Shown one piece after another: positions 18,011 through 50,711 of a stretch of DNA of 52,305 bases. The stretch is from Halobellus sp. (GTDB lineage Archaea > Halobacteriota > Halobacteria > Halobacteriales > Haloferacaceae): the NCBI GenBank assembly GCA_042215855.1, contig JBDGUM010000049.1:1-52305 (forward strand), given 5' to 3'. A program made the translations under genes and the position numbers. Position 1 is the first letter of the stretch; each line of letters opens with the position of its first letter. Below the pieces are notes generated by a model, which worked only from the letters and a program-made list of their open reading frames with translations, was not told the origin of the DNA and made no database searches.

Positions 18011-19594
18011 ATGCACCACAGTTCGACGGTCGAGGTGCCGGCAGTGAAGGATCTCTCCCGGATCGCCGCCGAGAACAACCCCGACAAGGTCGCGTTCGGC
18101 AACGGCGTCGACGGTGAGACGATGACGTGGCGGGAGTTCGACGAGCGGAGCAATCAGGCCGCGAACGCGTTCAAGCAGTACGTCGGCCAGGGAGACCGCG
18201 TCGCGCTGCTCTGTGAGAACTCGATGGAGCACACCGTGCTCTGGAACGGCGGGCTGAAGGCGGGCTGTACGGTCTCGAACCTTCACATTCGGGCGTCGGC
18301 GAACACCCTCCAGCACTGCATCGACTCCCTGCGGCCGAAGGTCCTCGTGGTCGACGAGGAGACATCCGAGATGTACGAGGAGCGCCTGAAGGACAAGATC
18401 ACCACGGACGTCGACGTCGTCGTCAACACCGGATCGGCGATGACGGACTACGAGGTGGGGATGGATCCGTTCCTCGACGGGCATTCGAGGGCCGAACCGG
18501 ACGTGCGCGTACGCGAGGAGGACACGGCGGTCGTGATGTGGACCTCTGGCACCACGGGCGAGCCCAAGGGCTGGTGTCACACGAACCGCGGGCTCTACTT
18601 CCGCGCCAACGCCCTGGTCAGCGTCTACGAACTCAACCGTCCCGCGCGGCAGCCGCACGTCTTCACGCCCTCGTTCGCGGCCTGGTACTCGGTGGTGTTG
18701 CCGGCGCTCGTCTCGGGTGCGACCACCTACTTCCTCCGGTCGTGGGACCCCGAGGACTACCTGGAGATGATCCAGGAGCACGACCTCACCTCCGCGCTGC
18801 TGGTGCCGACGATGTGGCGAGAGATCCTCAACCTCGAGAACTTCGACGACTACGACCTGAGTTCCCTCACCGCCATTATGTCCGCCGGCGAGGTCCTGGA
18901 CGCGACGACGCTCCGCCGGCTCCGGGAGAACATCTGCGACGTCGTCAAGAACTCCTACGCCGCGACCGAGGCGTACGCGACCGTGATGGAGAACGCCGAG
19001 CTCACCGAGGAGCGCGTCGAGAGCGTCGGCAAGCCCGTCCCCGGCGTCGAGATCCGGATCGTCGACGAGGACGGCACCTACAGGGACGTGAAGCCGACCG
19101 GCGAGGTCGGCGAGATCGTCGTTCGCGCGCCCGACTGCCCCGTCTGGGCGTGGGAACGCACCGACAAGACCGAGGACGTCTTCGAGGACGGCTGGTGGTA
19201 CTCCGGCGACCTCGGCTACCGCGACGAGGACGGATTCATCTACCTGGAGGGCCGCACCGACCTCATGATCATGTCCAAGGGGATCAAGGTGTACCCCTCG
19301 CCGATCGAAGAGCGACTCAACGCCCATCCCGGCGTCAACGAGTCCGCCGTCGTGGGCGTCGAAGACGAGGAATACGGTGAAAAGGTGACCGCCTACGTCT
19401 ACCGGGACGATCCCGACCTGACGGCCGAGGAACTCGACGAGTGGTGCCTGGAGAGCGACGACCTCGCACGGATGGAGCGCCCCCGCGAGTACCACTTCGT
19501 GGACGAGTCGCTGCCGCGGACCTCCACGGGGAAGCTCGATCGGCTGAGCGCCAAGAACGAGAACCTCGACGTGACGACCGAGGACGTCGAATAG
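18011..19594 (+). CDS. AMP-forming acyl/aryl-CoA ligase
   Basis: WTSGTTGEPKG, SGDLG, GRTD, PRTSTGK. Confidence 0.9.
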   Translation: MHHSSTVEVPAVKDLSRIAAENNPDKVAFGNGVDGETMTWREFDERSNQAANAFKQYVGQGDRVALLCENSMEHTVLWNGGLKAGCTVSNLHIRASANTLQHCIDSLRPKVLVVDEETSEMYEERLKDKITTDVDVVVNTGSAMTDYEVGMDPFLDGHSRAEPDVRVREEDTAVVMWTSGTTGEPKGWCHTNRGLYFRANALVSVYELNRPARQPHVFTPSFAAWYSVVLPALVSGATTYFLRSWDPEDYLEMIQEHDLTSALLVPTMWREILNLENFDDYDLSSLTAIMSAGEVLDATTLRRLRENICDVVKNSYAATEAYATVMENAELTEERVESVGKPVPGVEIRIVDEDGTYRDVKPTGEVGEIVVRAPDCPVWAWERTDKTEDVFEDGWWYSGDLGYRDEDGFIYLEGRTDLMIMSKGIKVYPSPIEERLNAHPGVNESAVVGVEDEEYGEKVTAYVYRDDPDLTAEELDEWCLESDDLARMERPREYHFVDESLPRTSTGKLDRLSAKNENLDVTTEDVE

Positions 19595-19798
19595 GTCGCC
19601 CCGCCGCCCACATTCGGTTTCCGTTTCGTCCGTTCGCCGGAACGCCGGTCGGTTCTCGAAACCGTGTGTATCGTTCGCGTTACTCTTGCAGACACGTCAG
19701 GGACAAATTTATATAATATACCAGAAATTTGAATTCAGTCGGGCATACTACCTAAATCTTAAGTAGGATACGTTACTCCACTAAGGTGGAATACCACA

Positions 19799-21151
19799 AT
19801 GAGCGAAAGAGCGTGGTCCTTCAGCGACAGTATGGCGGAGGCCGTCGACAAGGCCGGCAGTCCGGTCGAACTCACCCGAGACCTCGGCGTCGGACAGTTC
19901 ACCGAGGTCCCGGACGAGATCACGAACTGGATCGAGGAGCAGCGGTCCTGGCGCGAGAGCGTCGCCTTCGCCGACCAGTCGTATCACATGACCGACCACT
20001 ACGTAGAGGGTCCCGACGCGCTGGACCTCTACAAGGACTTCGCGGTCAACAGCTTCGCGAACACCGAGCCCGGCAAGGCGAAGCAGCTCGTCGTCGCCAA
20101 CCCCAACGGGAACTACATCGGCGACGCGATCTGGTTCCACCTCGAAGAGGACAAGTTCCTGAGCGTCGGCAGCCGCCCCGCCCACAACTGGCTCCAGTAC
20201 CAGATCGAGACGGGCGACTACGACGTCGACGGACACATCCAGGGACGCCCGGTCCAGACCGGCGACGACCCGAACAACTTCCGCTTCCAGGTCCAGGGGC
20301 CGGAGGCGATCAAAGTGATGGAGGAGGCCGTCGACGGCGACCTCCCCGACCTCGGCTTCTTCAACTTCGCGGAGATCTCGATCGACGGTCACGACGCCTA
20401 CCTCCTGCGCCACGGGATGGCCGGCGAGCCCGGCTTCGAGTTCTGGGGCGACTACGAGAACGGCGAGGAAGTCAAGGAGGCCGTGATGGAGGCCGGCGAG
20501 GAGCACGACATCAAACATCTCGGCGCCGAGGCCTACCAGACGCCGAACGCGATCCTCGGCTGGATCCCGCTCGTCGTCCCCGCGATCTTCGAGGAGGGAA
20601 TGGAGGACTACCTCGAGTGGCTCGACGTCGGCGACGGCCTGCTGTCGATCGGCGGGAGCTTCGACTCCGACGACATCTCCGACTACTACTTCACCCCGGT
20701 CGAACTCGGTTACGGTCACATCATCAACTTCGACCACGACTTCGTGGGCGCCGACGCCCTGAAGGACGAGGTCGACGACCCCGACCGCAAGAAGGTCACC
20801 CTCGTCTGGGACGACGACGACGTCGTCGACATCTTCGCGTCGCTCTTCCGGGAGGGCGAGACCTACCAGTACATGGACTTCCCGCACCCGCGGACGGCCG
20901 CCTGCCCGTACGACGAGGTCCTCGTCGACGGCGAGCACGTCGGCGTCTCGACGGACAAGTCCTACATCTACAACGAGCGCGAGTTCCTCTCGCTCGCGGT
21001 CATCGACACCGAGTACGCCGAGCCCGGCACCGAGGTCACCCTCGTCTGGGGCGACCCCGAGGACAACGACAACAAGCGCGTCGAGCGCCACACCCAGAAG
21101 GAAGTCACCGCGACGGTCGCGAACGCGCCCTACAGCGAAGACAAGCGGTAA
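19799..21151 (+). CDS. GcvT-family THF-dependent aryl O-demethylase (LigM/DesA-like) 1
   Basis: NWIEEQRSWR, DQSYHM, AKQ, IGDAI, RFQVQGP, LRHGMAGEPG, IGGSF, FDHDFVG, KKVTL, YNE. Confidence 0.85.
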   Translation: MSERAWSFSDSMAEAVDKAGSPVELTRDLGVGQFTEVPDEITNWIEEQRSWRESVAFADQSYHMTDHYVEGPDALDLYKDFAVNSFANTEPGKAKQLVVANPNGNYIGDAIWFHLEEDKFLSVGSRPAHNWLQYQIETGDYDVDGHIQGRPVQTGDDPNNFRFQVQGPEAIKVMEEAVDGDLPDLGFFNFAEISIDGHDAYLLRHGMAGEPGFEFWGDYENGEEVKEAVMEAGEEHDIKHLGAEAYQTPNAILGWIPLVVPAIFEEGMEDYLEWLDVGDGLLSIGGSFDSDDISDYYFTPVELGYGHIINFDHDFVGADALKDEVDDPDRKKVTLVWDDDDVVDIFASLFREGETYQYMDFPHPRTAACPYDEVLVDGEHVGVSTDKSYIYNEREFLSLAVIDTEYAEPGTEVTLVWGDPEDNDNKRVERHTQKEVTATVANAPYSEDKR

Positions 21152-21361: not shown

Positions 21362-22333
21362 ATGACGCGAGCCATCGTCGACCAGGACATCACGCCCACC
21401 GACCGACTCCTCGACCACCTCGACGACGACTGGGAGGTCACGGTCGGCATCGACGCCGACGAGGCGTCGGTCGAGGCCGAACTGGCGGAGTACGACGTCG
21501 CCTTCGTCACCTCGCGGGTACCGCTCACGAAGGCGGTCCTCGACAGCGCCGAGCGGCTCTCGCTGATCGGGAAACTGGGAACGGGGATCGACTCGATCGA
21601 CCTGGAAGCGGCCCGGGCGAACGGGGTCACCGTCACCCACACGCCCGGCCACAACGCCCTCTCGGTGGCCGAACACGCGCTCGGGCTGACGCTCGCGACC
21701 GCCCGACGGTTGCCCGTGGCGAGGGAGATCGTCGCCGAGGGCCGGTGGCGCGACGAGTACCCGCTCGGCACGCGGATCTCCGGCTCGACCGTCGGCATCG
21801 TCGGCTTCGGGAACGTCGGCAAGCGCGTGGGGATGCTCCTTTCCGGGTTCGACGTCGACGTCCTCGTCTCGGATCCGTACGTCCCGAGCATCGACGCCGA
21901 GTTAGCCCACGGCGAGCAGACCGATCTGGAGACGCTCCTCGGGGCGAGTGACGTGGTGATCCTCACCCCCGAACTCACAGCGGAGACCCGCGGCCTGATC
22001 GGCGAGGCCGAACTCGACTCGATGAAGTCGTCGGGGCTCCTGGTGAACGTCTCGCGCGGGCCCGTCGTCGTGGAGGCGGCGCTGATCGACGCGCTCCGGA
22101 ACGGCGCGATCGCCGGTGCCGGCCTGGACGTGTTCGAGTCCGAGCCCGTGCCGGCGGACTCGCCGCTCCAGGAACTGGACAACGCCGTCCTCACGCCCCA
22201 CATCGCGGCGATGACCGCCGAGTGCCGCGCGGGGAACATCGATCAGCTCGCGGCGAACGTCACGCGGCTGTTCGCCGGCGAGGAGGTCTTAGATCGGTAC
22301 GTTCCGGTGGACGCCGCCGACCTCGGGGAGTAG
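21362..22333 (+). CDS. D-isomer-specific 2-hydroxyacid dehydrogenase
   Basis: GTGIDSID, VAEH, GIVGFGNVG, NVSRG, LDVFESEP, TPHIA. Confidence 0.9.
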   Translation: MTRAIVDQDITPTDRLLDHLDDDWEVTVGIDADEASVEAELAEYDVAFVTSRVPLTKAVLDSAERLSLIGKLGTGIDSIDLEAARANGVTVTHTPGHNALSVAEHALGLTLATARRLPVAREIVAEGRWRDEYPLGTRISGSTVGIVGFGNVGKRVGMLLSGFDVDVLVSDPYVPSIDAELAHGEQTDLETLLGASDVVILTPELTAETRGLIGEAELDSMKSSGLLVNVSRGPVVVEAALIDALRNGAIAGAGLDVFESEPVPADSPLQELDNAVLTPHIAAMTAECRAGNIDQLAANVTRLFAGEEVLDRYVPVDAADLGE

Positions 22334-23153: not shown

Positions 23154-23915
23154 ATGCCCACGGACCGGACGTCACTCACGACCGTCACGCGCGCGTTCGA
23201 GGTCCTGGATCTGCTCTGGGAACTCGACGGGGCGGGGCCGTCGGAGTTGGCGACGCGGATGGACCTCCCGGACAGCACCGTCTACGATTACCTCCGGTCG
23301 CTGAGCGAGACGCGATACGTCACCCGCGAGGACGGCGAGTACCGGCTGAGTTCGTACTTCCTCACCATCGGCGGGAAGATGAAACACCGGAACAGGCTGT
23401 TCCAGGTGGCGAAACCCGAGATGAAGCGCGTGGTCTCCGAGACCGACGAACTGGTCGGTCTGACGATCGAGAACGACGGCCGAGCGGTCGTCTACCACCA
23501 GGAAGAGGGCCGCCAGGCGCTGAGCCTGGGGACATACACCGGCGCGGCCACGCCGATGCACACCGTCGCGACGGGGAAGGCGATCCTCGCGTACCTCCCC
23601 GAGGAACGCGTCGACGAGATCATCGCCGAACGCGGGCTCGAACAGCGCACCGAACACTCGATCACCGACCCCGACGAATTGAAGGCGGAACTGGCGCAGA
23701 TCCGCGAAGACGGCCACGCGGTCGACTGGAACGAACAGGTGGTCGGGATGGGGATGGCCGCGGTCCCGATCCTCGTCGAGGACGGCGTGCTGGGCTCGTT
23801 CGGGATCGTCGTCCCGACCGGACGGATCCGCGACGAGTCCTATCAGGAAGAGCTCCTCCAGAAGCTCCGCGAGATGGCGAACACCGTCACGATCAATTAC
23901 CAGTACGGGAACTGA
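23154..23915 (+). CDS. IclR family regulator
   Basis: HTH STVYDYLRSL; HTVATGKAILA; IREDGHAVD. Confidence 0.92.
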   Translation: MPTDRTSLTTVTRAFEVLDLLWELDGAGPSELATRMDLPDSTVYDYLRSLSETRYVTREDGEYRLSSYFLTIGGKMKHRNRLFQVAKPEMKRVVSETDELVGLTIENDGRAVVYHQEEGRQALSLGTYTGAATPMHTVATGKAILAYLPEERVDEIIAERGLEQRTEHSITDPDELKAELAQIREDGHAVDWNEQVVGMGMAAVPILVEDGVLGSFGIVVPTGRIRDESYQEELLQKLREMANTVTINYQYGN

Positions 23916-24046: not shown

Positions 24047-24457
24047 TTACTCGGCGATCGACTCCAGCGCCTCGCGGACCTCGTCGGGGAGCGGCACCGG
24101 CTCGTTGTCCGCCTTGGAGACGCAGACGTGCTGTTCGCGGGCGCTGAACCGCGTGTTGCCGTCCGCGTCGGTGGCGGTGAACTCGAGACCGAGGCTCTTG
24201 TTGCCGACGTCGGGCTCGACAGCGATGGTGAGGACGTCGCCCACTTCGACCGGCCGCTCGAAGTCGGTGTCCATCGAGACGATCGGGAGGTGCACCCCGT
24301 ACTCCTCGGGGATGTCCCAGTAGGCCACGTCGAGATCTTCCATCAACTCCTCGCCGGCGCGGTGCATCGCGTCGATCAGATTCGGATAGTACGCGATACC
24401 GTGGGGATCGGCATCTCCCCACGCGCACTTCCACTCGAACTCGAACATCACCCCCAC
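24047..24457 (-). CDS. hotdog-fold acyl-CoA thioesterase (4-hydroxybenzoyl-CoA thioesterase/YbgC-like)
   Basis: WGDADPHGIAYYPN motif; FERPVEVGD. Confidence 0.85.
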   Translation of the reverse strand: MGVMFEFEWKCAWGDADPHGIAYYPNLIDAMHRAGEELMEDLDVAYWDIPEEYGVHLPIVSMDTDFERPVEVGDVLTIAVEPDVGNKSLGLEFTATDADGNTRFSAREQHVCVSKADNEPVPLPDEVREALESIAE

Positions 24458-24556: not shown

Positions 24557-25906
24557 ATGAGCGCCCGAAGTCTCGAAGACCTACTCGACGCCGTCGACTC
24601 GCCCCTCGAGATGCTGCGGTCGCAGGGGCGCGGCGCCTTCGGTTTCCCCAACGTCCCCGACGAGCACACCTCCTGGATCGAAGAGCAGCGCGCGTGGCGC
24701 GAGACGTGTTCGTTCGCCGATCAGTCCCACCATATGGTGGACCTCTGGGTCGAGGGCCCCGACGCGCTGGCGCTGTTTTCGGACCTCGCGGTGAACGGCT
24801 TCGACGGCTACGAGCCCGGAACGGCCAAGCAGTTGGTGCTCGCCAATCCCGACGGGTACTTCATCGGCGACGGGATCCTCTTCTACTTCGCCGAGGACGA
24901 CTTCGCGCTCGTGGGTCCGCCGCAGGCGACCAACTGGGTGCAGTACCACGCCGAGACCGGCGATTACGACGTCGCGACCGAGCGCGACGAGACCTCCGGC
25001 GTGCGCGACGGCCCGCCGACGAACTACCGCTACCAGATCCAGGGGCCGAAGGCGCTCGACGTGATGGAGTCGGTCGTCGACGGGCCGCTCCCGGAACTGG
25101 GCTTCTTCAACTTCGCCGAGATCACGATCGACGGTAACGGGGTCTCGCTTCTACGACACGGGATGTCCGGCGAGGCCGGTTTCGAGTTCTGGGGCCCCTG
25201 GGAGCACGCCCAGAAGATTCAGCGGCTCGTCCTCGAGGCGGGCGAGGCGTACGGCATCCGCCGACTGGGCGGGATGAGCTACGGTAGTTCCGCGGTCGTC
25301 TCGGGGTGGCTCGGGATGCCGCTGCCCGCCGTGTACGACGGCGAGTCGATGCGGGCGTACCGCGAGTGGCTCGATGCGCGGAGCATCGAGGGCCACTACT
25401 CCGTCGCGGGCAGTCTGGACTCCGACGACCTCACCGACTACTACGTCACGCCCGTCGAGATCGGCTACGGCCGGCTGATCGACCTCGATCACGACTTCGT
25501 CGGGGAGGAAGCCATCCGAGCGGAATTGGCTGACCCCGACCGGACGCTCGTCACTCTGGAGTGGGACGACGAGGACGTGATCGACGTGTTCGCGTCGCTG
25601 TTGCGTGAGGGCGAGACCAACCGCTTTCCCGAACTGCCGATCCCCTGGCGCTCGACCTCCCACCACGACCGCGTCGAGAAGGCGGGCGAGCCCGTCGGCA
25701 CTTCGCGGATGAGCGCCTACACGTACAACGAGCGGACGATGCTGTCGCTCGCCGTCCTCGACGTCGACCTGACAGAGCCCGGCACCGAGGTCACGGTCGT
25801 CTGGGGGGAGCCGGACGGGTCGGCGAACCCCGCGGTCGAGCGTCACGAGCGGACGGAGGTCCGGGCGACGGTCGCCCCGGTCCCGTACACGGCGGACAAT
25901 CGGTAG
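24557..25906 (+). CDS. GcvT-family THF-dependent aryl O-demethylase (LigM/DesA-like) 2
   Basis: DQSHHMVDL, IGDGILF, YRYQIQGP, LRHGM, PLPAVY, DHDFVG. Confidence 0.85.
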   Translation: MSARSLEDLLDAVDSPLEMLRSQGRGAFGFPNVPDEHTSWIEEQRAWRETCSFADQSHHMVDLWVEGPDALALFSDLAVNGFDGYEPGTAKQLVLANPDGYFIGDGILFYFAEDDFALVGPPQATNWVQYHAETGDYDVATERDETSGVRDGPPTNYRYQIQGPKALDVMESVVDGPLPELGFFNFAEITIDGNGVSLLRHGMSGEAGFEFWGPWEHAQKIQRLVLEAGEAYGIRRLGGMSYGSSAVVSGWLGMPLPAVYDGESMRAYREWLDARSIEGHYSVAGSLDSDDLTDYYVTPVEIGYGRLIDLDHDFVGEEAIRAELADPDRTLVTLEWDDEDVIDVFASLLREGETNRFPELPIPWRSTSHHDRVEKAGEPVGTSRMSAYTYNERTMLSLAVLDVDLTEPGTEVTVVWGEPDGSANPAVERHERTEVRATVAPVPYTADNR

Positions 25907-26060: not shown

Positions 26061-26915
26061 ATGGCTTCCCAAGGACTCTCCGCGTCTTCGACGCGCACGA
26101 CCGCCGAATCGCTTCTCGAGAACCCCCGCTTCGAGCTGATGCCGTTCGACAGCTTCGACGACGAGATCGAACACCTGCCCGACGGCGCGACCATCACGAT
26201 CACGGCGTCTCCGCAACTGGAACTGGAGGCGACCATCGAGGCCGCCGAACGTGCCGCCCGGGAGGGCTACGAGGTCGTCCCGCACGTCTCCGCGCGCTAC
26301 GTCCGCGGCCCCGACCACCTCGCGGAGATCTGCGAGCGCCTCAAGGCCGTCGGCATCGAGGACATCTTCGTGCCGGGCGGCGACCGCGAGGAGCCGATCG
26401 GCGAGTTCGAGTCCGCCTACGATATGCTGGTGGCGCTCGACGACCTCGAGTACGAGTTCGAGGAGATCGGCATCACGGGGTATCCCGAAGGCCACGACTT
26501 CCTCTCGGAAGCGACGCTGGCCGAGGCGATGGAGAAGAAGGCCCCCTACGCGACGTACATCGCCACACAGCTGTGTTACGATCCGAACGCGGTGCTCGAA
26601 TGGATCGAGGAGGTCCGCGACCGCGGCATCGATCTCCCGATCGAGGTCGGCATCCCGGGCGTGATGAAGTACGAGAAGCTCCTGAGCATCTCCCAGAAGG
26701 TCGGCGTCGGCGACTCGGTGAAGTTCCTGAAGAAGACGACCGGCATATTCGGGTTCATCAAGCAGTTCATCGGTTCGCGCGGCCGGTACAAGCCGGACGA
26801 GCTCGTCGAGGGGCTCGCCCCGCACGCCGACGAGTACGGGATCCGCGGCCTCCACATCTACACGTTCAATCAGGTCCCCGACACGGAGGAGTGGCGGCGG
26901 AGCCGTCTCGACTGA
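26061..26915 (+). CDS. metF: methylenetetrahydrofolate reductase (MetF-like)
   Basis: PHVSAR, GGD, GYPEGH, TQLCYD, GIPG, LHIYTFNQ; directly after the ligM-like gene. Confidence 0.85.
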   Translation: MASQGLSASSTRTTAESLLENPRFELMPFDSFDDEIEHLPDGATITITASPQLELEATIEAAERAAREGYEVVPHVSARYVRGPDHLAEICERLKAVGIEDIFVPGGDREEPIGEFESAYDMLVALDDLEYEFEEIGITGYPEGHDFLSEATLAEAMEKKAPYATYIATQLCYDPNAVLEWIEEVRDRGIDLPIEVGIPGVMKYEKLLSISQKVGVGDSVKFLKKTTGIFGFIKQFIGSRGRYKPDELVEGLAPHADEYGIRGLHIYTFNQVPDTEEWRRSRLD

Positions 26916-26995: not shown

Positions 26996-28081
26996 CCCGA
27001 CATCCGGATCCGCGAGGACGACGTCGCCTCGATCCAGTGGACCTCGGGGACGACCGGCCGTCCCAAGGGCTGGTGTCACACCCACCGCGGGCTCGGTCAC
27101 AAGGCGATCCAGCTCCAGCAGCTGCTGGCGCTCGATCGGACCGCGAGCCAGGCGCACGTCTTCACGCCCTCGTTCGCGGCGTGGTACTCGCTGTTCCTCC
27201 CGGCGCTGTACTCAAACGCGGCGACCTACTACCTCTCGGAGTGGGACGCGGAGGCCTACGTCCGCCTCATCGACGAGAAGGGGATCACGACCGCGGACCT
27301 GGTGCCCACGATGTGGCAGGAGGTCCTCCAGCTCGAGTCCCTCTCGGAGTACGACCTCAGTTCGCTGAACCGCGCGATCACCAGCGGCGAGTACCTCAAC
27401 GAGGAGACCTTCCACGCGCTCCGGGAGGAGGTCTGCGAGGAGGTGTACAACAGCTACGCCGCGACCGAGGTGCTCGGCACGGGCGTCAGCGCCGAGGAGA
27501 TCGCCGACGGCCGCATCGGGACCGTCGGGAAGCCGATCTCGGCGACGCGGATCCGCGTCGTCGAGGAGGGCGGCCCGCCGGACGCGACCAAGGAGCCCGG
27601 CGAGGTCGGCGAGATCATCGTCAACGGCCCCGACTGCGCCGTGTGGGCCTGGAAGGACACCGACCGGACCGAACGCGCCTTCGAGGACGGCTGGTGGTAC
27701 TCCGGCGATCTCGGCTACAAGGACGAGGACGGCTACCTGTACGTCGAAGGGCGGACGGACTTTATGATCAAATCGAAGGGGATCAAGGTCGCGCCCACGC
27801 CGATCGAGGAGCGGCTCCAGGCCCACCCCGGCGTCGAGCAGGCGGTCGTCGTCGGCGTCCCCGACGAGGAGTTCGGGGAGAGGGTCACCGCGGTCGTGCG
27901 CCGTTCGGACCCCGACGTCGGACCCGACGACCTGGAGTCGTGGTGCCTGGAGAGCGACGAGGTCGCGCGGTTCGAGCGGCCGCGGGCGTACCACTTCGTC
28001 GAGGAGGCGTTCCCGCGGACCGCCACCGACAAACTGGATCGCGCGGCGCTGATCGAGCGGCTGGTGTCGGACGAGGCCTGA
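26996..28081 (+). pseudogene. N-terminally truncated AMP-forming CoA ligase (paralog of 18011-19594)
   Basis: Similarity to the paralog begins at PDIRIREDD...WTSGTTGRPKGWCHT; about 160 N-terminal residues and a start codon are absent. Confidence 0.75.
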
Positions 28082-36118: not shown

Positions 36119-36124
36119 TCGAGC

Positions 36125-36819: not shown

Positions 36820-36820
36820 G

Positions 36821-37552: not shown

Positions 37553-37564
37553 GCGGACGCGGTA

Positions 37565-38904: not shown

Positions 38905-38915
38905 CCCGGCCCCCG

Positions 38916-41582: not shown

Positions 41583-41682
41583 ACACGGACCTCGGACGGC
41601 GTCACAATAAAAATACGGAGCGAGTCCGTCGGTGCCGTGCGAGATCGAACCGCGTAAGTCGCCGACCCGTCTCCGGGGCGGT

Positions 41683-42591
41683 ATGGAGGTTCTCGGTCGG
41701 CTGCTCGGGCTGCTCGTCCTCCTGGCCGCTGGGACGGGGCTCCGCCTCGGCGGCGTGCTCGACGAGGTGTGGACCCGGCGGCTCAACGCCATCGCCTACT
41801 ACGTCGCGCTGCCGGCGCTCGTCTTCGTCTCTACCTACGATCGGGGGATCGGGGACCTGCTGACGCCGGCCCTCGTGGGCGGTCCCGTCGCGGTTCTCCT
41901 CGGGACCGCGGCCCTCGCGTGGCTGCTCCACCGGAACCGCGCCGATCGGGAGCGCCGGGGGGTCGCGATCGTCCAGTCGTACCACTCGAACATCGGCTAT
42001 CTGGGCCTACCGCTCCTCGCCGCGACGTTCGGAGACGACGTCACCGCCGTCGCGAGCGTCGTGCTCGGCGTCGTCTCGCTGACCCAGGTCCCGCTGACGA
42101 TCACCGTGCTGACCGGGATCGACGGCACCGACGGCTCGGTCGCCACCGAACTGGTGGAGTTGGCCAAGAACCCGGTGCTCCTGATCCTCGTCCTGGGGCT
42201 GACCGTCGGCTCGCTCGGGATCGGCGTTCCGGGGGCGGTGACGGCCGGCCTCGACGTCCTCGGATCGCTGGCGCTCCCGCTCGCGTTGCTGTGTGTTGGC
42301 GCGTCGCTGCGGTTCGATATCCCCGACGGCGACCTGGGGACGAGCGCGGCGGTCGTCGCGCTGAAGGTCGCGTGGATGCCGGCGCTGGCGTGGGCCGTGT
42401 TCTCCCTGCTCGGGGTCGGCGCCGCCGCGTTCACCGCTGCGGTCGTGATGCTCGGGACCCCGACCGCGGTCTCGACGTACGTGTTCGCGAGCGAGCTCGG
42501 CGGCGATCCGGAGTTCGCCTCGCTGAACGTGTTCCTGACGACAGTCGTCTCCGTCGGGACGCTCTTCGTGCTCATTCGGGTAGTCGGGTGA
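41683..42591 (+). CDS. AEC (auxin efflux carrier) family transporter
   Basis: YVALPALVF, SNIGYLGLP, NPVL, PTAVS; about 10 TM helices. Confidence 0.9.
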   Translation: MEVLGRLLGLLVLLAAGTGLRLGGVLDEVWTRRLNAIAYYVALPALVFVSTYDRGIGDLLTPALVGGPVAVLLGTAALAWLLHRNRADRERRGVAIVQSYHSNIGYLGLPLLAATFGDDVTAVASVVLGVVSLTQVPLTITVLTGIDGTDGSVATELVELAKNPVLLILVLGLTVGSLGIGVPGAVTAGLDVLGSLALPLALLCVGASLRFDIPDGDLGTSAAVVALKVAWMPALAWAVFSLLGVGAAAFTAAVVMLGTPTAVSTYVFASELGGDPEFASLNVFLTTVVSVGTLFVLIRVVG

Positions 42592-42691
42592 GATCACACG
42601 CTTACCGGTCGCTCACCTGGGATCGTAGACAAAGTCGCCAAGCGGCGTTGATCGTCGTCCTGGCCGCCCGTATCGGCGCGAGTGAGGGCGA

Positions 42692-42976
42692 TTACTCGAT
42701 GTGGCCTTCCTGCCGCAGCTGATCCGCGTCCTGCTCGGAGTAGCGCCACTCGATGTTGGCCTTCTCGTCCTGCCAGTCCCACGGTTCGACGAGGACGACG
42801 TCGCCCTCGTTGATCCAGGTCCGGTACTTCATTCGGCCGGGGATCCGGCCCATCCGGTTTTTGCCGTCGGCACAGCGAACGCGTACGTGGTTGCCACCGT
42901 TGTGTTCCGTGACAGTGGCGAACAGCTCGTCTTCGTTGGGCATTCGAAGGTTTCGACGCCCTGTTTCTTCAGTCAC
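42692..42976 (-). CDS. eif1a: archaeal translation initiation factor aIF-1A
   Basis: [12 protein letters not shown]...[26 protein letters not shown]. Confidence 0.96.
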
Positions 42977-43743: not shown

Positions 43744-45276
43744 TTACTCGTGGTCGCGGTTCTCGAGTTTGTATCGTTCGATCTTCCCGCTCGGGTTGCG
43801 CGGGAGTTCGTCGAGGAACCGGTACTCCCGCGGCCGCTTGTAGTCCGCCAGGTCGTCGCTGTCGCGGCACCACTCGTCCAACTCCCCCTCGGTCACGTCG
43901 CCGTTCCGTTCGACGAAGGCGACGACGATCTCGCCCCACTCCTCGTCGGGGTGACCGACGACGCCAGCGTCCGAGACCTCGGGGTGTGTGAGTAGGACGT
44001 CCTCGACTTCCGTCGGGTGGATGTTCTCGCCGCCGCTGATGATCATATCGTCGACGCGGCCGGTGATGACGATCCGGTTCTCCTCGGTCCGGCGGGCGGC
44101 GTCGCCGGTGTAGAACCACCCCTCGTGGATCGCTTCCTCGGTGGCCTCGGGCTTGTTCCAGTAGCCGTCGAAGGCGACCGGCGAGTCCGTGTTGACGATG
44201 AGTTCCCCCTGGGTGCCCGGTTCGACCGTGTCCTGGGGATCGTCGCTGTCGACGGCGACGACGCGCGTTTCGAGGCCGACGTTCGCGGGCCCGGTCACGG
44301 TCGGGTCGCGGATGTCCTGGAGGTCGATGTACGCGAGGGTGCCGTAGACCTCGGTGGTCCCGTAGAGGTTCGCGATGTGGTCGGGGTCGAACGTCTCGAT
44401 CGTCCGCTCGAAGACGGCCTGGCTCATCGGCGCGCCGGAGTAGCCGATCGTGTCGACCGACGAGATGTCGACCTCGTCGATCGCGTCGGTGTCGAGCATA
44501 TTCGCGAAGATGGTCGGCGCCTCGTGCAACGCCGTGACCCCGTAGTCCTCGATGGCCCGGACGGCGGTTTCGGGGTCGAACTCGGACATACACAGGTAGG
44601 TACCGCTCATCGAGAGCAGGCCGCAGAGGATGCCGTGAAGGCCGACGGTGTGGTACAGCGGCATAACCCCGATCATCGTCTCGTCGAGGTAGTAGTGCTG
44701 GCCGAGGGAGTTGATGATCCACCGGGAGGAGGTCGAATCGTGGTCCAGCGGGATCCCCTTCGGGTCGCCGGTGGTCCCGGAGCTGTACAGCATCACGCTC
44801 GGATCGTCGTAGCCGACGTCGACGTCGGGTTTCCCGGCCGGGGCGTCGGCGAAGTCCTCGAAGGGTTCCGCGAAGTCGGGCGCGTCGTCGCCGACGTAGA
44901 CCGCCGGCACCTCGATGTCGTCTTCGACCGACGCGACCGCCTCGCGGGAGATCTCGTCGAAGAGGAACAGCTCGGGATCGGAGTCCGCGATGTGGTAGCG
45001 GACGCCGCTGGCGGCCAGCCGGAAGTTGAACGGGACGGCGACGACGCCGGCCAGCTGGGTGGCGACGAACGTCACGACGTGTTCTGGGCGGTTCGCCATA
45101 CAGATCGCCACCCGGTCGCCGGGTTCGATCCCCCGATCCCGGAGCGCGGTGGCGACGCGGTACGCCCGGGTCCGGAGCTCCGAGTAGGTCAGCTCGGCCC
45201 CGTCGTTCAGGTGGGCGATCGCGGTCCGGTCGGGTGTTCGAGCGACCGATTGCTCGAACGTGGAAGGGAACAACAT
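43744..45276 (-). CDS. AMP-forming acyl/aryl-CoA ligase
   Basis: YSSGTTGDPKG, PLYHTVG, YGTTE, TGD, ISGGENI, PRNPSGK. Confidence 0.92.
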   Translation of the reverse strand: MLFPSTFEQSVARTPDRTAIAHLNDGAELTYSELRTRAYRVATALRDRGIEPGDRVAICMANRPEHVVTFVATQLAGVVAVPFNFRLAASGVRYHIADSDPELFLFDEISREAVASVEDDIEVPAVYVGDDAPDFAEPFEDFADAPAGKPDVDVGYDDPSVMLYSSGTTGDPKGIPLDHDSTSSRWIINSLGQHYYLDETMIGVMPLYHTVGLHGILCGLLSMSGTYLCMSEFDPETAVRAIEDYGVTALHEAPTIFANMLDTDAIDEVDISSVDTIGYSGAPMSQAVFERTIETFDPDHIANLYGTTEVYGTLAYIDLQDIRDPTVTGPANVGLETRVVAVDSDDPQDTVEPGTQGELIVNTDSPVAFDGYWNKPEATEEAIHEGWFYTGDAARRTEENRIVITGRVDDMIISGGENIHPTEVEDVLLTHPEVSDAGVVGHPDEEWGEIVVAFVERNGDVTEGELDEWCRDSDDLADYKRPREYRFLDELPRNPSGKIERYKLENRDHE

Positions 45277-45393: not shown

Positions 45394-46149
45394 TCAGTAG
45401 TATCGGTAGTTGACAGCGATCTCCTCGGCGGCCGCGCGGACGTTCTGGATCAGGTCGTTCCGATAGTCGTCCTGTTCGAGCCGCCCGGTCGGGCAGGCGA
45501 CCGAGACGCTCCCGAGGAGGTCGCCGTCCTCGATGACCGGGCAGGCGACGAAACCGATTCCGACGACCTGCTCCTCGCGGTCGATCGCGTAGCCGTTCTC
45601 GCGGATGCCTTCGAGCTCCGAGCGGAGCTCGTCGGGATCGGTGACCGTCTGCTCGGTCACCGCCTCGAGTTCGTCGACGTCGAGCAGTTCGTCGATGCGC
45701 TCGTCCGGCAGGTGCGCGAGCAGGACCTTACCGGCGGCGTGGGAGTGGATCGGCGTCCGGAAGCCGGGGTAGGTCCCCGTCTGGACGGAGGTGAGATCGC
45801 CCGCCTCGTGGAGCATCACCCACTCGCCGTCCTCCTCCTGGCCGAGCTGGGCGAGCTCGTCGGACTGCTCGGAGAGCTTCTCGAGGACGACGTCCGAGGA
45901 GCGGAAGAACCGGCTGCGGTACTTGAGCAGGCTGCCGCGCTCGAGGAAGCGGTAGCTGATCCGGTACGTGCCGGCCTCCCTGACGACGAAGCCCGTCGCC
46001 TCCAGCGAGACGAGGTAGTCGTGGGCGGTGCTCCGGTTGACGCCCATCAGACCTGCGATCTCCGCGGGGCCGGCTTCCCCCTCGCGTTCCAGCAGGTCGA
46101 GGACCTCGAACGCCCGGGCGACCGTCTGGAGTGGGACGTCTGAACTCAC
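45394..46149 (-). CDS. IclR family regulator
   Basis: RSTAHDYL HTH; HSHAAGKVLLA; GYAIDREE. Confidence 0.92.
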   Translation of the reverse strand: MSSDVPLQTVARAFEVLDLLEREGEAGPAEIAGLMGVNRSTAHDYLVSLEATGFVVREAGTYRISYRFLERGSLLKYRSRFFRSSDVVLEKLSEQSDELAQLGQEEDGEWVMLHEAGDLTSVQTGTYPGFRTPIHSHAAGKVLLAHLPDERIDELLDVDELEAVTEQTVTDPDELRSELEGIRENGYAIDREEQVVGIGFVACPVIEDGDLLGSVSVACPTGRLEQDDYRNDLIQNVRAAAEEIAVNYRYY

Positions 46150-46295: not shown

Positions 46296-47681
46296 ATGAC
46301 AGAGAGCCTCGAAGACGCGCTTCAGCGAGCCGACAGTCCAGTCGATTTCGTCCGATCACCCGCCCGAGGGGCGGACACCGGCCACCTCCGCCTGTTCACC
46401 GATCTCCCCGACGAGGTGACGAACTGGCGAGAGGAGCAGTCCGCGTGGGCCGACAGCGTCGCGCTGGCGGACCTCTCGCACCATATGACTGACCTCCACG
46501 TCGAGGGCCCCGACGCGCTCGACCTCTTTTCGGACCTCGGCATCAACGACTTCTCCTCGTTCGAGCCGGGACAGGCGAAGCAGTTCGCCGCGACCAGCCC
46601 CGACGGCTACCTCATCGGCGACGGCATCCTCTTCCATCTCGGCGAGGACGAGTTCAACCTCGTCGGCTACGGCCCGATCAACTGGGTCGAGTTCCACGCC
46701 GAGACCCGCGACTACGACGTCGAGACCGAACGCGACGAGCACGGCGGGCTTCGGGAGGGCCCGCCGAAGACGTTCCGCTACCAGGTCCAGGGCCCCGACG
46801 CGCTCGACCTGATCACGGAGGTCGTCGACGGCGACCTCCCCGAGGTGCCGTTCTTCAACTTCCGCGAGGTCTCGATCGCCGGCCACGAGGTCAACGCTCT
46901 CCGCCACGGGATGCTGAACGAGCCCGGATTCGAGTTCTTCGGCCCCTGGGAGCACGCCGAGGACGTCCGCACTGCGATTATGGAGACGGGCCGGGACTAC
47001 GACATCCGCCGGATCGGTGCGAAGGCCTACCCGACGAACGTGATCACGGCGGCGTGGATGTCGATCCCGCTGCCGGCGATCTACCACGACGACGACCTCC
47101 TGGCGGAGTACCGCGAGTGGCTCGACGTGGATAGCTTCGAGGGCGCGCTCGCCATCGGCGGCAGCCTCGACTCCGAGGACATCACCGACCACTACCTGAC
47201 GCCGGTCGAGGCGGGCCACGGTCGCTTCGTCGATCTCGACCACGACTTCGTCGGGAGGGACGCGGTGGCCGAACAGCTCGAGAACGAGGACCGCACCCGG
47301 GTCACGCTCGTGTGGGATCAGGAGGCCACGACGGAGCTGTACGGCGGGGCGCTCTTCGACGACGACGCCACCTACCGGTACACCGATCTGCCCGTCGCCG
47401 ACTGGGCGCTGACCCAGAACGACAGGGTCCTGAAGGACGGCGACGTCGTCGGCGTCGCCAACAACACCCGCTACCTCTACTTCGAGCGGCGGATGTTCTC
47501 GCTGTGCGCGATCGACTCCGAACTCGCCGAGCCCGGCACCGAGGTCTCGATCCTCTGGGGCGAGCCCGACTCCGGGAACCCGCGCGTCGAGGACCACGAA
47601 CAGACGGAGGTCACGGCGACCGTCGCGCCGGCGCCGTACTTCGAGGACAAGCGCAAGACTGCGGACTACAACGCGAACTGA
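46296..47681 (+). CDS. GcvT-family THF-dependent aryl O-demethylase (LigM/DesA-like) 3
   Basis: NWREEQ, DLSHHM, IGDGILF, RYQVQGP, GAKAYPTN, PLPAIY, AIGGS. Confidence 0.87.
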   Translation: MTESLEDALQRADSPVDFVRSPARGADTGHLRLFTDLPDEVTNWREEQSAWADSVALADLSHHMTDLHVEGPDALDLFSDLGINDFSSFEPGQAKQFAATSPDGYLIGDGILFHLGEDEFNLVGYGPINWVEFHAETRDYDVETERDEHGGLREGPPKTFRYQVQGPDALDLITEVVDGDLPEVPFFNFREVSIAGHEVNALRHGMLNEPGFEFFGPWEHAEDVRTAIMETGRDYDIRRIGAKAYPTNVITAAWMSIPLPAIYHDDDLLAEYREWLDVDSFEGALAIGGSLDSEDITDHYLTPVEAGHGRFVDLDHDFVGRDAVAEQLENEDRTRVTLVWDQEATTELYGGALFDDDATYRYTDLPVADWALTQNDRVLKDGDVVGVANNTRYLYFERRMFSLCAIDSELAEPGTEVSILWGEPDSGNPRVEDHEQTEVTATVAPAPYFEDKRKTADYNAN

Positions 47682-47821: not shown

Positions 47822-49132
47822 ATGAGTAACAGACGACGATTTATCACAGCCGCGGGAACGGGCGCCGTCGCGCTCGTCACGGGGTGTCTCGGATCGGGCG
47901 GGGACGGCGACAGCACAACCACGTCCGCCGCTGACGGCGGAACGGGCGGGAGCACGGCCACGACGGGATCGAGCGGGAGCGACGATCCGATCACGATCGC
48001 CGCGACGGTCTCCCGAAGCGGGTCGTTCTCCGGCGCGGGGGCGGACGTCGAGACCGCGTACAAACTCGGGACGCAGGTGATAAACGAGAACGGCGGCATC
48101 CTCGGCCGCGACGTGGAACTCATCATCCGTGACGACGAGAGCACCCCGAAGGGCGTCCGCGAGGGGCTCCAGGCGATCATCTCGAACAACGACGTGGACC
48201 TCATCTGGGGCACGTTCGGCAGCCTGCTCGTGGCCGCCGCCGCCTCGATCGCCGAACGCGAGGAGCTACCGATGCTGAGCGCGAACTTCGCGTACATGCA
48301 GCCCCACCTGAACAACAACTACAACTGGACGTTCGCCCCGTTCCCGAAGAGCCGCGACATGGCGAACGGCGCGGTGAAACTGGCGAAGCTCGCGCCCGAA
48401 GACAATCAGCCGGTGAACGTGGGCATCTGGCAGACGAACACCGGCTGGGGTGCCGAGCTCGGCCGCGTCTGGTCCGAAGCGCTCGAAGCCAACGGCCACG
48501 AGGTCGTCGTCAACGAGAAGTTCCAGATCGGTACCTCGGACTTCTCGACGCTCATCTCGCAGGCCAAGAGCGCGAACGTGGAGTACCTGCTCACGAACCC
48601 CGCGCCGGGCGGCGGGATCACGATGGTGAAACAGATGCAGGAGAACAGTTTCAACCCGAAGATCGCCACGATAGAGCGCGCGGCGACGATCACGACCTGG
48701 CTGAAGGCGACCGGCGTCGCGGGGCTGTACACCAACTCAACGCCGGGGTGGGTCCCCGGGCTGACCGGCGGCGGGAACCGGCAGATGCTCGAGGCCTACC
48801 GGGCCCAGGAGGGCGTCGCGTCCGACGCCTACCCCGCGCCGACCGTCGGCGGGACGTACAACGTCACGCAGACGACGAAGCAGGCGGTCGAGGCCGCCGG
48901 CTCCGTCGAGCCCGACGCGGTCCAGCAGGCGCTCCTCGACAACGAGTTCCGGACGGTCCTCGGCTCGTTCCGGTTCGACGAGAACGGGATGCCCGTCGAG
49001 GGCGACCTGGCGCCACCGATGGGGCAGTGGCAGGACGGTCTGCTCCGACTGGTCATCCCCTCGGACGTCGACAGCCCGGCGTCGACCGACTTCGTGTATC
49101 CGGCGCCGCCGTACGGCGAGCGCTCGATGTAA
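47822..49132 (+). CDS. LivJ-type (type 1 PBP) ABC substrate-binding Tat lipoprotein
   Basis: RRRFI...TGC lipobox; INENGGILGRDVELIIRDDES; DFSTLI. Confidence 0.88.
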   Translation: MSNRRRFITAAGTGAVALVTGCLGSGGDGDSTTTSAADGGTGGSTATTGSSGSDDPITIAATVSRSGSFSGAGADVETAYKLGTQVINENGGILGRDVELIIRDDESTPKGVREGLQAIISNNDVDLIWGTFGSLLVAAAASIAEREELPMLSANFAYMQPHLNNNYNWTFAPFPKSRDMANGAVKLAKLAPEDNQPVNVGIWQTNTGWGAELGRVWSEALEANGHEVVVNEKFQIGTSDFSTLISQAKSANVEYLLTNPAPGGGITMVKQMQENSFNPKIATIERAATITTWLKATGVAGLYTNSTPGWVPGLTGGGNRQMLEAYRAQEGVASDAYPAPTVGGTYNVTQTTKQAVEAAGSVEPDAVQQALLDNEFRTVLGSFRFDENGMPVEGDLAPPMGQWQDGLLRLVIPSDVDSPASTDFVYPAPPYGERSM

Positions 49133-49166
49133 CCGCCCCGGAGACACGGACACAGATTCACATTCG

Positions 49167-50711
49167 ATGCTGGACTTCCGCGCATTCAGACGGGTAGTGG
49201 ACCGATACGGGGACCGGACGGCCCTCGTAGATACGAACGGGACGGCTCGGACGTATCGCGAACTAGGAGGGCGGACCGACGCCCTGGCGAACGCGCTCGA
49301 CGACCGCCTCGGCGACGCCCGGACCGCGTCGCTCCTCCGCAACGGCCCGGCGGCAATCGAGATGATGCTCGCCGCACAGAAGCGCGGCCGGGCGAACGCG
49401 CAGTTGAGCTTCCGCGGCGCCGCGGGCGAGCTCCGGCGGATGATCGAGGCCGCCGAGGCGGAGGCGCTCGTCTACGACGCGGCGAACGCCGAGATGGCCG
49501 AGCGGGTCCTCGACGAGATGGATCTCGACGTCGCGCTGTTCGTCGGCGACGACGGGCCCGCCCGACCCGAGGTGGAACCCTACGAAGGGGCCGTAGCGTC
49601 GGCCCATACGGACTACGCCGCCGTCGAGGATCCCGACGCGGAGACCGGGATCCTCTACACCAGCGGGTCGACGAGCGAGCCGAAGGCCATCCTGGAGGAC
49701 CAGCGGCGCGTCTGGCGGGCGAGCACCCAGGCCGTGATGGAGATGAGTCTCGAACCGGACGACGTGGCCCTGGTGACGACGCCGTGGTACCACGACGTCA
49801 CGACGGTAGCGTGGATCTACCCCTACCTCCAGGTCGGGGCGACGCTCGTGCTCCAGCCGGAGTTCGTCCCGCCCGAGACGATGCGCCTCCTCGACGAGCA
49901 CGACGTGACGGGGCTGCTCGCGGTGCCGGCGCAGCTCGAGGCGCTGCTGGAGGCCGACGAGAAGGGTTCGTACGACCTCTCGTCGCTGTCGTGTATCCGG
50001 ACGGGCGGCGCCGTCGTCTCGCCCTCGCTCGTCGAGCGGGTCCGCGAGCGGATGACCGAGGGCGTCCACAACACCTACGGCCTGACCGAGGGCATCTCGA
50101 ACCTCACGCACGCGTATCCCGACGAGCAGGTGGAGAGCCCCGGTACCGTCGGGAACGCGTCGTTCAACTGGGACCTCCGGGTCGTCGAGGCCGCAGCGCC
50201 CGACGAGGAGCCGGACCCGTCGGCGACCGTCGACCGCGGCGAGACCGGCGAACTCATCGGTCGCGGCCCGTTCGCCGACGGCTACCTGAACAGCCCCGAG
50301 GAGGAAGCGCGGCTGTTCGTCGACGGCGAGTGGCTCCGGACGATGGACGTCGCCCACGTCGACGACCACGGCCGGTTGCACATCGTCGACCGCGTGGACA
50401 ATATGCTCGTCAGCGGCGGCGAGAACATCTATCCCCAGGAGGTCGAACTCGCACTCGATAGCCACCCGGACGTCCGGGAGGTCGCAGTCGTCGGCGTCCC
50501 CGACGAGGAATGGGGCGAGCGCGTCGCGGCCGTGGTCGTCGGCGACGCGGATCCGGACGAGCTCGACGAGTATTGCAGGGATCACGACGATCTAGCCGAC
50601 TTCAAGCGACCGCGATCGTACGTCGTAATCGACGAACCGCTTCCGCGGTCCGACACCGGAACGCTGCTCCGAGAGGAGATCAGTCGTAAGTACTTCGAAA
50701 ACGATAGTTGA
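49167..50711 (+). CDS. AMP-binding enzyme (CoA ligase family, atypical motifs)
   Basis: YTSGSTSEPK, YGLTE, SGGENIYP. Confidence 0.88.
   Translation: MLDFRAFRRVVDRYGDRTALVDTNGTARTYRELGGRTDALANALDDRLGDARTASLLRNGPAAIEMMLAAQKRGRANAQLSFRGAAGELRRMIEAAEAEALVYDAANAEMAERVLDEMDLDVALFVGDDGPARPEVEPYEGAVASAHTDYAAVEDPDAETGILYTSGSTSEPKAILEDQRRVWRASTQAVMEMSLEPDDVALVTTPWYHDVTTVAWIYPYLQVGATLVLQPEFVPPETMRLLDEHDVTGLLAVPAQLEALLEADEKGSYDLSSLSCIRTGGAVVSPSLVERVRERMTEGVHNTYGLTEGISNLTHAYPDEQVESPGTVGNASFNWDLRVVEAAAPDEEPDPSATVDRGETGELIGRGPFADGYLNSPEEEARLFVDGEWLRTMDVAHVDDHGRLHIVDRVDNMLVSGGENIYPQEVELALDSHPDVREVAVVGVPDEEWGERVAAVVVGDADPDELDEYCRDHDDLADFKRPRSYVVIDEPLPRSDTGTLLREEISRKYFENDS

Follow-up and report, generated by a model that had tools for sequence, protein, structure and literature searches.

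The DNA analyzed here, referred to as the window (52,305 nucleotides), is the entire contig JBDGUM010000049.1 (C1) of a Halobellus sp. genome (G000; assembly of 1.87 Mb, 69% complete), and on it lies a conserved haloarchaeal module, partly deleted in this copy, that combines LigM-family demethylases with CoA ligases and a ring-cleavage dioxygenase. Judged from gene families, active-site residues, and gene neighborhoods, the module probably serves aryl O-demethylation with ring opening, and it appears to be an undescribed, conserved haloarchaeal variant of tetrahydrofolate (THF)-dependent aryl demethylation. For the complete route, which would involve CoA-thioester formation, THF-dependent demethylation, and ring opening between two hydroxylated carbons, the chances are about even. 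A broader proposal is more tentative: Halobellus and a few other haloarchaea may possess an aerobic pathway for lignin-type methoxylated aromatics, with LigM proteins that demethylate aroyl-CoA, a gallate- or pyrogallol-type VOC dioxygenase lacking the equivalent of His200, and VOC and HpcH proteins in place of GalDBC, the up to 14 LigM-family paralogues per genome representing a radiation. No report of aerobic aromatic O-demethylation in haloarchaea was found in the open literature (most subscription journals being outside its scope), and the activities of an aroyl-CoA-demethylating LigM or a His200-less VOC gallate-type dioxygenase were likewise not found in the open literature searched.

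Conservation of the module

The core shared by the module carriers consists of CoA ligase 1, the first LigM-family demethylase (LigM1), a D-2-hydroxyacid dehydrogenase, an IclR regulator, MetF, a small VOC protein, an HpcH-type aldolase, and the dioxygenase, usually together with a thioesterase. Relatives carry this gene set in an identical order and other families carry it in reshuffled form, so that its association is more than chance; conservation of the neighborhood is what an earlier note on this DNA had suggested checking. In one even draw of 300 Halobacteria genomes (completeness of at least 90%), LigM-like genes occur in 10, namely seven of eight within the genus and three of 292 outside it. 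The ligase-1 family was found in seven genomes (one with a stop), all LigM-positive, and dioxygenases of at least 60% identity in six, all among the same 10. Two carriers come from other families, and kin genomes are not independent. Within the genus, an orthologue of the dioxygenase (at least 88%) is present in 12 of 25 genomes.

Among named sequences, the one closest to the second demethylase (LigM2) comes from Halobellus rubicundus (88%), and several Halobellus species are represented at the close named loci. A plasmid of Halosolutus gelatinilyticus carries a reshuffled unit together with E1, E2, E3, FolD, PabAB, FolP, MetF, and PurU, and further reshuffled copies are found in Halarchaeum sp., YIM A00010, the Haloferacaceae archaeon 50 records, G097, and G293. 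The intact module is also present in the cultured strains Halobellus limi, H. clavatus, H. rarus, H. captivus, H. rufus, and Halosolutus gelatinilyticus.

LigM-family demethylases

The three genes previously described as full-length and LigM/DesA-like are confirmed as such (LigM1, LigM2, and LigM3). Each gives a full-length match to LigM in the PDB (Table 1), as compared with E-values of 1e-18 to 1e-19 for GcvT and of 1e-4 to 1e-6, if listed at all, for the DmdA-type structure 3tfh; models for DmdA and trimethylamine N-oxide (TMAO) demethylase score 40–64 bits. Trees were built with FastTree and, on 53 rows, with IQ-TREE; seven partial LigM-like rows were excluded before alignment, and 23 P rows added for the tree were excluded from the residue counts. 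In the 53-row IQ-TREE, which did not include DmdA itself, three distant GCV_T-family proteins from the same genome fall outside the LigM family with support 100/100. An identity as GcvT or DmdA is ruled out by search scores and tree together.

The expected grouping with LigM and DesA therefore stands, but not as equivalogs. The NCBIfam cut-offs are 800 for the DesA equivalog (NF047633) and 580 for the LigM equivalog (NF047885), and the three proteins score 467–514 and 413–466 bits, respectively, all below the cut-off; none of 301 Halobacteria passes the DesA cut-off. Six plasmid proteins over one or the other cut-off served as equivalog references, and identity to five of them is 40–46%. The LigM and DesA clade of the 53-row IQ-TREE comprises six rows (97/88), none of them haloarchaeal. 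On sequence grounds, the three proteins belong to the LigM family in the broad sense and are not LigM/DesA equivalogs.

With numbering taken from the 5X1I alignment, all three keep His60 and Tyr247, which we take to be the pair acting on the aryl ether (a 'catalytic tyrosine' appears in the title of one reference), as well as Gln93, Asp110, Gln165, Phe189, and Glu215, presumably of the folate site. LigM3 also keeps Asn250, and in it Gln57 is replaced by Leu. Both His60 and Tyr247 are present in 82 of 89 distinct haloarchaeal sequences, and Glu215 in all 89. Position 122, whose arginine we assume to anchor the carboxylate of benzoates, is Ser in LigM1, with an Arg at the next position, Pro in LigM2, and Tyr in LigM3. 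Arg122 occurs in none of the 82 haloarchaeal sequences with His60 and Tyr247, in 18 of 30 bacterial ones, and in all six proteins over the LigM or DesA cut-off.

These data bear on the interpretation in which LigM/DesA-like enzymes demethylate free vanillate and syringate and classical extradiol meta-cleavage follows. It accounts for LigM as the top structural match, for DesA and LigM as the top NCBIfam models, for catechol 2,3-dioxygenase as the top model of the dioxygenase, and for a ligM-metF order identical to that of Sphingobium SYK-6. However, because the proteins score below both cut-offs, fall outside the LigM and DesA clade, and lack Arg122, free vanillate or syringate is not implied as substrate. 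Together with the dioxygenase features described below and a ligase that it leaves unexplained, this makes the interpretation unlikely.

LigM-like genes number six in the genome of the window and 1–14 in 17 of the 24 other genomes of the genus. In the tree, bacterial rows are nested within haloarchaeal groups; as sampling is query-biased and the outgroup long, no direction of transfer between bacteria and archaea is claimed. A divergent clade, seven of the 89 haloarchaeal sequences, lacks both His60 and Tyr247, keeps Glu215, and likely performs a different chemistry (L123:8459-9820, L138:3182-4648, L139:8220-9566, L135:13395-14711, L130:8102-9436, L091, and L071). On an Agrobacterium fabrum plasmid, a cyclic oligonucleotide-based antiphage signaling system (CBASS) is annotated beside the LigM cluster (L119:12167-16514).

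Ring-cleavage dioxygenase and lower pathway

Alignment places the dioxygenase alongside catechol 2,3-dioxygenase and homoprotocatechuate 2,3-dioxygenase (HPCD). The iron ligands His155, His219, and Glu270 are invariant in 14 aligned sequences, and His250 and Tyr259, the equivalents of HPCD His248 and Tyr257, are kept. Its earlier designation as an extradiol dioxygenase thus holds for the two-domain VOC fold and the His-His-Glu ligands, but Ile201 occupies the position of HPCD His200, a second-sphere residue presumed to be the extradiol base. Among 28 distinct homologues, this position is Ile in 15 (15 of 15 in the clade of the window protein), His in eight (all eight ordinary relatives), and Tyr in five. 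The best PDB match, 9wgj, titled catechol 1,2-dioxygenase, also has Tyr there.

The five Tyr-type copies are all bacterial and linked to LigM. In Mesobaculum and Chelativorans they adjoin a 4-oxalomesaconate (OMA) tautomerase and a 4-carboxy-4-hydroxy-2-oxoadipate (CHA) aldolase, both over cut-off, and in Enteractinococcus the copy lies beside open reading frames whose translations read as the same two functions; no GalA was seen in these Tyr-type bacterial loci. OMA tautomerase and CHA aldolase belong to the gallate lower pathway, according to the portion of PMC12314914 available. At L069:3714-7281, L073:5457-8885, and L049:4200-8122, the Tyr-type enzyme found with both of them is annotated as catechol 2,3-dioxygenase; it is a candidate VOC-fold gallate dioxygenase. 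The His-keeping dioxygenases on contig C32 of the same genome as the window sit instead with a hydratase, an acylating acetaldehyde dehydrogenase, and a DmpG aldolase, that is, a classical meta lower pathway. By analogy, loss of His200 may accompany cleavage of a trihydroxylated ring between two hydroxylated carbons.

No semialdehyde dehydrogenase, hydrolase, or FAA-family hydratase was found in the shared core of the examined units, although aldehyde dehydrogenases lie near some copies. With neither a His200 equivalent in the dioxygenase nor a semialdehyde dehydrogenase or hydrolase in the core, classical meta-cleavage, as proposed in the earlier note and as part of the reading with free vanillate and syringate, becomes doubtful.

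For the following steps, the small VOC protein has conserved His/Glu motifs in 19 sequences; an Atlas search yielded no function, and its position predicts a tautomerase or hydratase. The D-2-hydroxyacid dehydrogenase and the alpha/beta pair of a 2-oxoacid dehydrogenase E1, both previously unmentioned, are members of the conserved unit, and the former likely disposes of the resulting oxo-acid or aldehyde. In G293, a phosphoenolpyruvate carboxykinase gene lies between those for the dioxygenase and the aldolase, a hint at oxaloacetate; an aldehyde dehydrogenase and a beta-hydroxyacid dehydrogenase in a paralogous unit (see below) hint at an aldehyde.

The genome as a whole has the look of an aromatic specialist, with five two-domain VOC dioxygenases. 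Other loci of interest in it (L141, equal to C32; L144, equal to C76; and C6:8835-12561) hold the meta lower pathway, a cupin dioxygenase-like gene with a thioesterase and ligases, and an apparent ring-hydroxylating dioxygenase.

CoA ligase, thioesterase, and the nature of the substrate

CoA ligase 1 is the tightest partner of LigM1. Its best 120 homologues carry haloarchaeal names only, and no NCBIfam cut-off is passed among the best 25 models. A paralogous unit, in which LigM has Lys at position 122, offers a comparison within one genus: VOC and HpcH genes are present at three of three loci and the dioxygenase at two of three, with neither a ligase nor a thioesterase within 18–21 kb. This pattern fits demethylation of thioesters without proving it.

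The same residue admits another explanation, which we regard as rather improbable: the demethylases would act on free compounds that are not benzoates, either methoxyphenols such as syringol and guaiacol or aryl-acetates, -lactates, or -propionates, while ligase, thioesterase, dehydrogenase, and E1 would serve side-chain or ring-fission products. An absent or displaced carboxylate would explain the loss of Arg122 equally well, and the 2-hydroxyacid dehydrogenase with E1/E2/E3 could convert an aryl-lactate into arylacetyl-CoA. In its favor are also the missing thioesterase of two reduced units, the high ranking of the HpaD and HpaI models, which belong to the homoprotocatechuate route, for dioxygenase and aldolase, and an Agrobacterium plasmid that combines LigM, MetF, an intradiol-family dioxygenase, an HpaH-like hydratase, and an HpaI-like aldolase. 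Conversely, the A. fabrum ferulate route includes an enoyl-CoA hydratase and a thiolase, neither of which is in the core; no E1 was found in the G004 and G009 units as retrieved; and the Lys122 unit retains the lower pathway without any ligase.

MetF and one-carbon metabolism

MetF, directly downstream of LigM2 as had been noted, is closest to the type-4 methylenetetrahydrofolate reductase (MTHFR) of SYK-6 (PDB 7xg9), with the next best match at 3e-11. The type-4 motifs are Leu48-Pro49/Arg78, Phe215/Cys219, and Pro268-Phe269, and the SYK-6 enzyme is described in the accessible part of PMC11868366 as oxidizing methyl-THF. The window protein keeps Pro49, Arg78, and Phe269 and carries Ser48, Ile215, Val219, and Thr268; since four motif residues differ, its direction is read from context only. 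Several bacterial LigM-linked MetFs also depart from these motifs.

This context is rich in one-carbon (C1) functions. FolD, PurU, FolP, and PabAB adjoin homologous units, and contig C31 of the same genome holds Fhs, FolD, PabAB, a folate-synthesis gene, a formate-dehydrogenase-type subunit, and a second Ile-type dioxygenase of the same clade. In haloarchaea, THF is the C1 carrier and a Mer-like protein has been proposed as the ordinary reductase (PMC8305020, as far as its text was available). With His60, Tyr247, and the folate-site residues kept and MetF resembling that of SYK-6, the earlier suggestion of THF-dependent demethylation with C1 recycling is supported at the level of sequence.

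The MetF family occurs in 63 of the 300 Halobacteria, and G000, G012, G014, and G020 have a second copy. Elsewhere, members of the family lie beside open reading frames that read as a serine hydroxymethyltransferase, a dimethylglycine-oxidase-type gene, or a Rieske oxygenase with a GcvT-like gene (L160, L161, L163-L166, and L145:8454-9305), and these neighborhoods possibly represent a wider module of methylamine C1 oxidation.

The methyl donor might be another methylated solute of salt lakes rather than a plant aryl ether, for example a compound methylated at N or S, or a gadusol or mycosporine sunscreen with its enol methyl ether. This would suit the wide occurrence of the MetF family, found near the dimethylglycine-oxidase-type gene in the same genome, and the up to 14 paralogues in genomes of the genus, some in transporter-only contexts. 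It is nevertheless very unlikely, given the retained aryl-ether pair His60/Tyr247, the ring-cleavage dioxygenase in the main unit of the examined relatives, and the low scores of the DmdA and TMAO-demethylase models.

Gene layout and deletions in the window

The single cluster described in the earlier note (18011–50711) does not hold up. Family scans resolve two aromatic units, unit 1 at 17990–33498 and unit 2 at 43744–50711, separated by about 10 kb of unrelated genes (Table 1), and about 400 kb separates the LigM3 unit from the main unit in G014. GC content is 0.658 in unit 1, 0.671 in unit 2, 0.699 in the intervening block, and 0.695 in the genome. The thioesterase, VOC protein, HpcH aldolase, and two IclR regulators were correctly recognized; three of the four supposed CoA ligases are whole, and the remaining one is 5'-truncated. 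Among the uptake proteins, the LivK-type binding protein is present, while LivGFHMK, the transporter encoded after metF in relatives, is absent from the window, and no copy of it turned up in the genome, which is 69% complete. Acidic composition likewise applies to 15 of the 16 window proteins measured (Asp plus Glu fraction 0.165–0.30), the binding protein being the exception at 0.11.

Table 1. Genes of the two aromatic units and the block between them.
Feature	Position	Strand	Basis or remark
CoA ligase 1 (ANL family), intact	17990..19594	+	Pfam AMP-binding; haloarchaeal subfamily travelling with demethylases
LigM-family demethylase 1 (LigM1), core member	19799..21151	+	PDB LigM, E 2e-104; residue table; tree
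D-2-hydroxyacid dehydrogenase, core member	21362..22333	+	Pfam; found in main unit of relatives
IclR regulator 1	23154..23915	+	Pfam
4HBT-type acyl-CoA thioesterase, usual but not universal member	24047..24448	-	Family scans
LigM-family demethylase 2 (LigM2)	24557..25906	+	PDB LigM, E 5e-122; residue table; tree
MetF, directly after LigM2	26061..26915	+	PDB 7xg9, E 2.7e-37
CoA ligase 2, 5'-truncated	26996..28081	+	Marks deletion; contigs from two studies cross the junction
Single-domain VOC protein, core member	28238..28603	+	Pfam
HpcH/HpaI-type class II pyruvate aldolase	28721..29506	+	Pfam; GarL/HpaI models below cut-off
Two-domain VOC ring-cleavage dioxygenase	29600..30532	+	Fold and residue alignment
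2-oxoacid (pyruvate-type) dehydrogenase E1 beta	30615..31580	-	Family scans
E1 alpha, without first 43 residues of intact orthologue	31584..32603	-	Left edge of second deletion
3' fragment (residues 100-365) of unannotated protein	32698..33498	+	Right edge of second deletion
Intervening non-system genes: PAS kinase, serine acetyltransferase, CBS, YqeC, MobA, iron-dependent alcohol dehydrogenase (Fe-ADH), transporter, eIF-1A	33686..42976		Family scans
CoA ligase 3, intact, unit 2	43744..45276	-	Family scans
IclR regulator 2, unit 2	45394..46149	-	Pfam
LigM-family demethylase 3 (LigM3), unit 2	46296..47681	+	PDB LigM, E 3e-113
LivK-type solute-binding protein, unit 2	47822..49132	+	Pfam
CoA ligase 4, intact, unit 2	49167..50711	+	Family scans

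Relative to G020 (80–93% nucleotide identity) and seven other relatives, unit 1 carries two deletions. The first, between the end of metF and CoA ligase 2, removed LivGFHMK, an amidohydrolase, and about 168 first codons of ligase 2, whose remnant matches residues 169–518 of the 523-residue intact orthologue, with no in-frame start codon before that point. The second, of about 25 kb compared with G020, brought the 5' end of E1 alpha up against the interior of the unannotated gene, a paralogue of which adjoins a UGSC-family gene in relatives. Junction 1 is crossed, with 0–2 differences, by contigs of runs X2, X3, and X7 from two studies; in X3, a contig of depth 15 (versus 81) continues upstream of this junction with a different sequence that resembles an intact ligase and represents either a minor allele or a relative. 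Junction 2 is spanned by one long X2 contig (31996–32895), which may derive from the source sample. With both junctions bridged in this way, an assembly artefact was rejected as an explanation for the truncations. Despite the deletions, the window retains its core genes intact. Because G020 has also lost ligase 2 and the amidohydrolase, and G004 and G009 hold a smaller unit, the lost parts are dispensable.

Searches of the PDB and the Atlas yielded no function for the lost amidohydrolase. Relatives carry an amidohydrolase beside the dioxygenase that is lost in the window (L022:5838-7300 in G020, where a Rieske ferredoxin accompanies it; L027, L034, L036, and L153). The best PDB matches of the relatives' amidohydrolase are 8sm6-8sm9 and 6m1w/8ful, which we take to be dinuclear oxygenases. 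An uncharacterized Amidohydro_2 family with no PDB match (L028:5207-6286, L174:10697-11770, L180:6917-8008, and L181:1528-2619) has a CoA ligase of the ligase-1/2 type next to it, or no more than about 5 kb away, at every locus with both sides visible; one copy is near a GMC oxidoreductase, an HpcH-fold lyase, and a class V aminotransferase.

As for neighboring genes, Fe-ADH was rejected as a module member, as it travels with the housekeeping block and is not in the main unit of most relatives. Two NMT1/SsuA-type binding proteins, an ABC ATPase, and a permease lie just upstream of unit 1 (13531–17221), a place where G020 has none of them. Cobalamin biosynthesis-like open reading frames (cbiG, cbiF, cbiL, and cbiT-like, read from translation only) occupy positions 1–3176, and a catalase-peroxidase-like gene, also read from translation, is cut by the contig end (51210–52305) and found near unit 2 in four relatives. 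No tRNA was found in the window.

Proposed pathway

In the proposed pathway, the substrate would be imported by a Liv-type ABC transporter, whose genes are present in relatives and lost in the window copy, and activated to aroyl-CoA by CoA ligase 1. LigM1, with LigM2 as a second demethylase, would then transfer the methyl group of this presumed substrate to THF by means of His60 and Tyr247, after which the thioesterase would release a gallate- or pyrogallol-type acid. By analogy, the His200-less VOC dioxygenase would yield a dicarboxylic product of the 2-hydroxymuconate type; with a dicarboxylic ring product, no semialdehyde enzyme would be required. The small VOC protein may tautomerize or hydrate this product, and HpcH may cleave it to pyruvate and an oxo-acid or aldehyde, taken up by E1 and the 2-hydroxyacid dehydrogenase. 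MetF, FolD, Fhs or PurU, and formate dehydrogenase, all encoded, would oxidize the methyl group and return THF. The LigM3 unit could act as a separate feeder for another methoxylated acid.

Several observations weigh against parts of this pathway. Arg122 is also missing in 12 of the 30 bacterial homologues, one of which, from a gallate-type cluster of Rhodococcus (L117), has no ligase within 21 kb, so that its loss need not imply a thioester substrate. LigM1 of the window has an Arg one place after 122, a motif shared with the reduced units of G004 and G009, in which no thioesterase was found, and several Arg-less paralogues stand alone without ligases. The ligase itself has no close characterized relative (best PDB match 165 bits). 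In the lower pathway, the best tree does not unite the Ile- and Tyr-type dioxygenases in a single clade (AU p 0.0502), and the gallate analogy may therefore be a case of convergence. A GalD-type tautomerase was found in none of six module-carrier genomes and LigK over its cut-off in none of five, and HpcH enzymes typically release aldehydes rather than oxaloacetate. On the C1 side, MetF lacks the type-4 residues Leu48, Cys219, and Pro268.

If the proposal is correct, one common saltern genus would be a specialist for methoxylated aromatics, and would link methoxy carbon from plants or other sources with folate C1 metabolism under high-salt conditions. The paralogue set, with its varied pockets, would be a source of salt-tolerant demethylases, and the archaeal and bacterial dioxygenases without His200 may form an unrecognized class of gallate-type ring-cleavage enzymes. 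The module is testable now, since cultured strains carry it intact.

Comparison with known systems

The closest known counterpart is the LigM/DesA system of Sphingobium SYK-6 (ligM-metF-ligH), with which the haloarchaeal module shares the fold family, His60/Tyr247, the folate residues, an adjacent metF of the same branch, and linked THF recycling. Unlike the SYK-6 enzymes, the haloarchaeal LigMs stand apart from the equivalogs in identity, score, and tree position and have no Arg122, and their module includes CoA ligases and a thioesterase, with a VOC dioxygenase and HpcH replacing DesB/LigAB, LigU, LigJ, and LigK. The substrates of LigM-type enzymes named in the parts of PMC9404685, PMC8091115, and PMC6021390 that could be consulted are vanillate, 3-O-methylgallate, syringate, and dicamba.

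The SpG8-1b ferulate route of Agrobacterium fabrum (Atu1415-1421) similarly combines a CoA ligase, a THF-dependent demethylase, and an MTHFR in one region. There, CoA serves beta-oxidation of the side chain and demethylation takes place on free vanillate (PMC7797058, in the part available), whereas the haloarchaeal core lacks the hydratase and thiolase. In the gallate lower pathway of SYK-6 and Pseudomonas NGC7 (GalD, GalB, and GalC), a dicarboxylate passes through tautomerase, hydratase, and aldolase to pyruvate and oxaloacetate, as excerpted from PMC12314914. The predicted logic of the haloarchaeal lower steps is the same, but no GalD or LigK equivalog was found in the module carriers examined, where VOC and HpcH proteins would substitute. 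The dioxygenase shares with type I extradiol dioxygenases the two-domain VOC fold, the His-His-Glu ligands, and the His248/Tyr257 equivalents, and differs from them by Ile at the His200 position.

Among archaea, Methermicoccus also uses aryl methyl ethers through its Mto system, but in a corrinoid-dependent and anaerobic manner that leaves the ring intact. Haloarcula D1 has a CoA-dependent aromatic route through gentisate, and in the genome analyzed here a cupin dioxygenase-like gene lies beside a thioesterase 35% identical to that of the window. The aromatic substrates of haloarchaea reviewed in the accessible portion of PMC9113102 are benzoate, hydroxybenzoate, cinnamate, phenol, and polycyclic aromatic hydrocarbons, none methoxylated. 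Gentisate catabolism in Haloferax D1227, covered by the same portion of that review, resembles the proposed pathway as an aerobic haloarchaeal ring cleavage, and differs from it in having no demethylation and in using a different dioxygenase.

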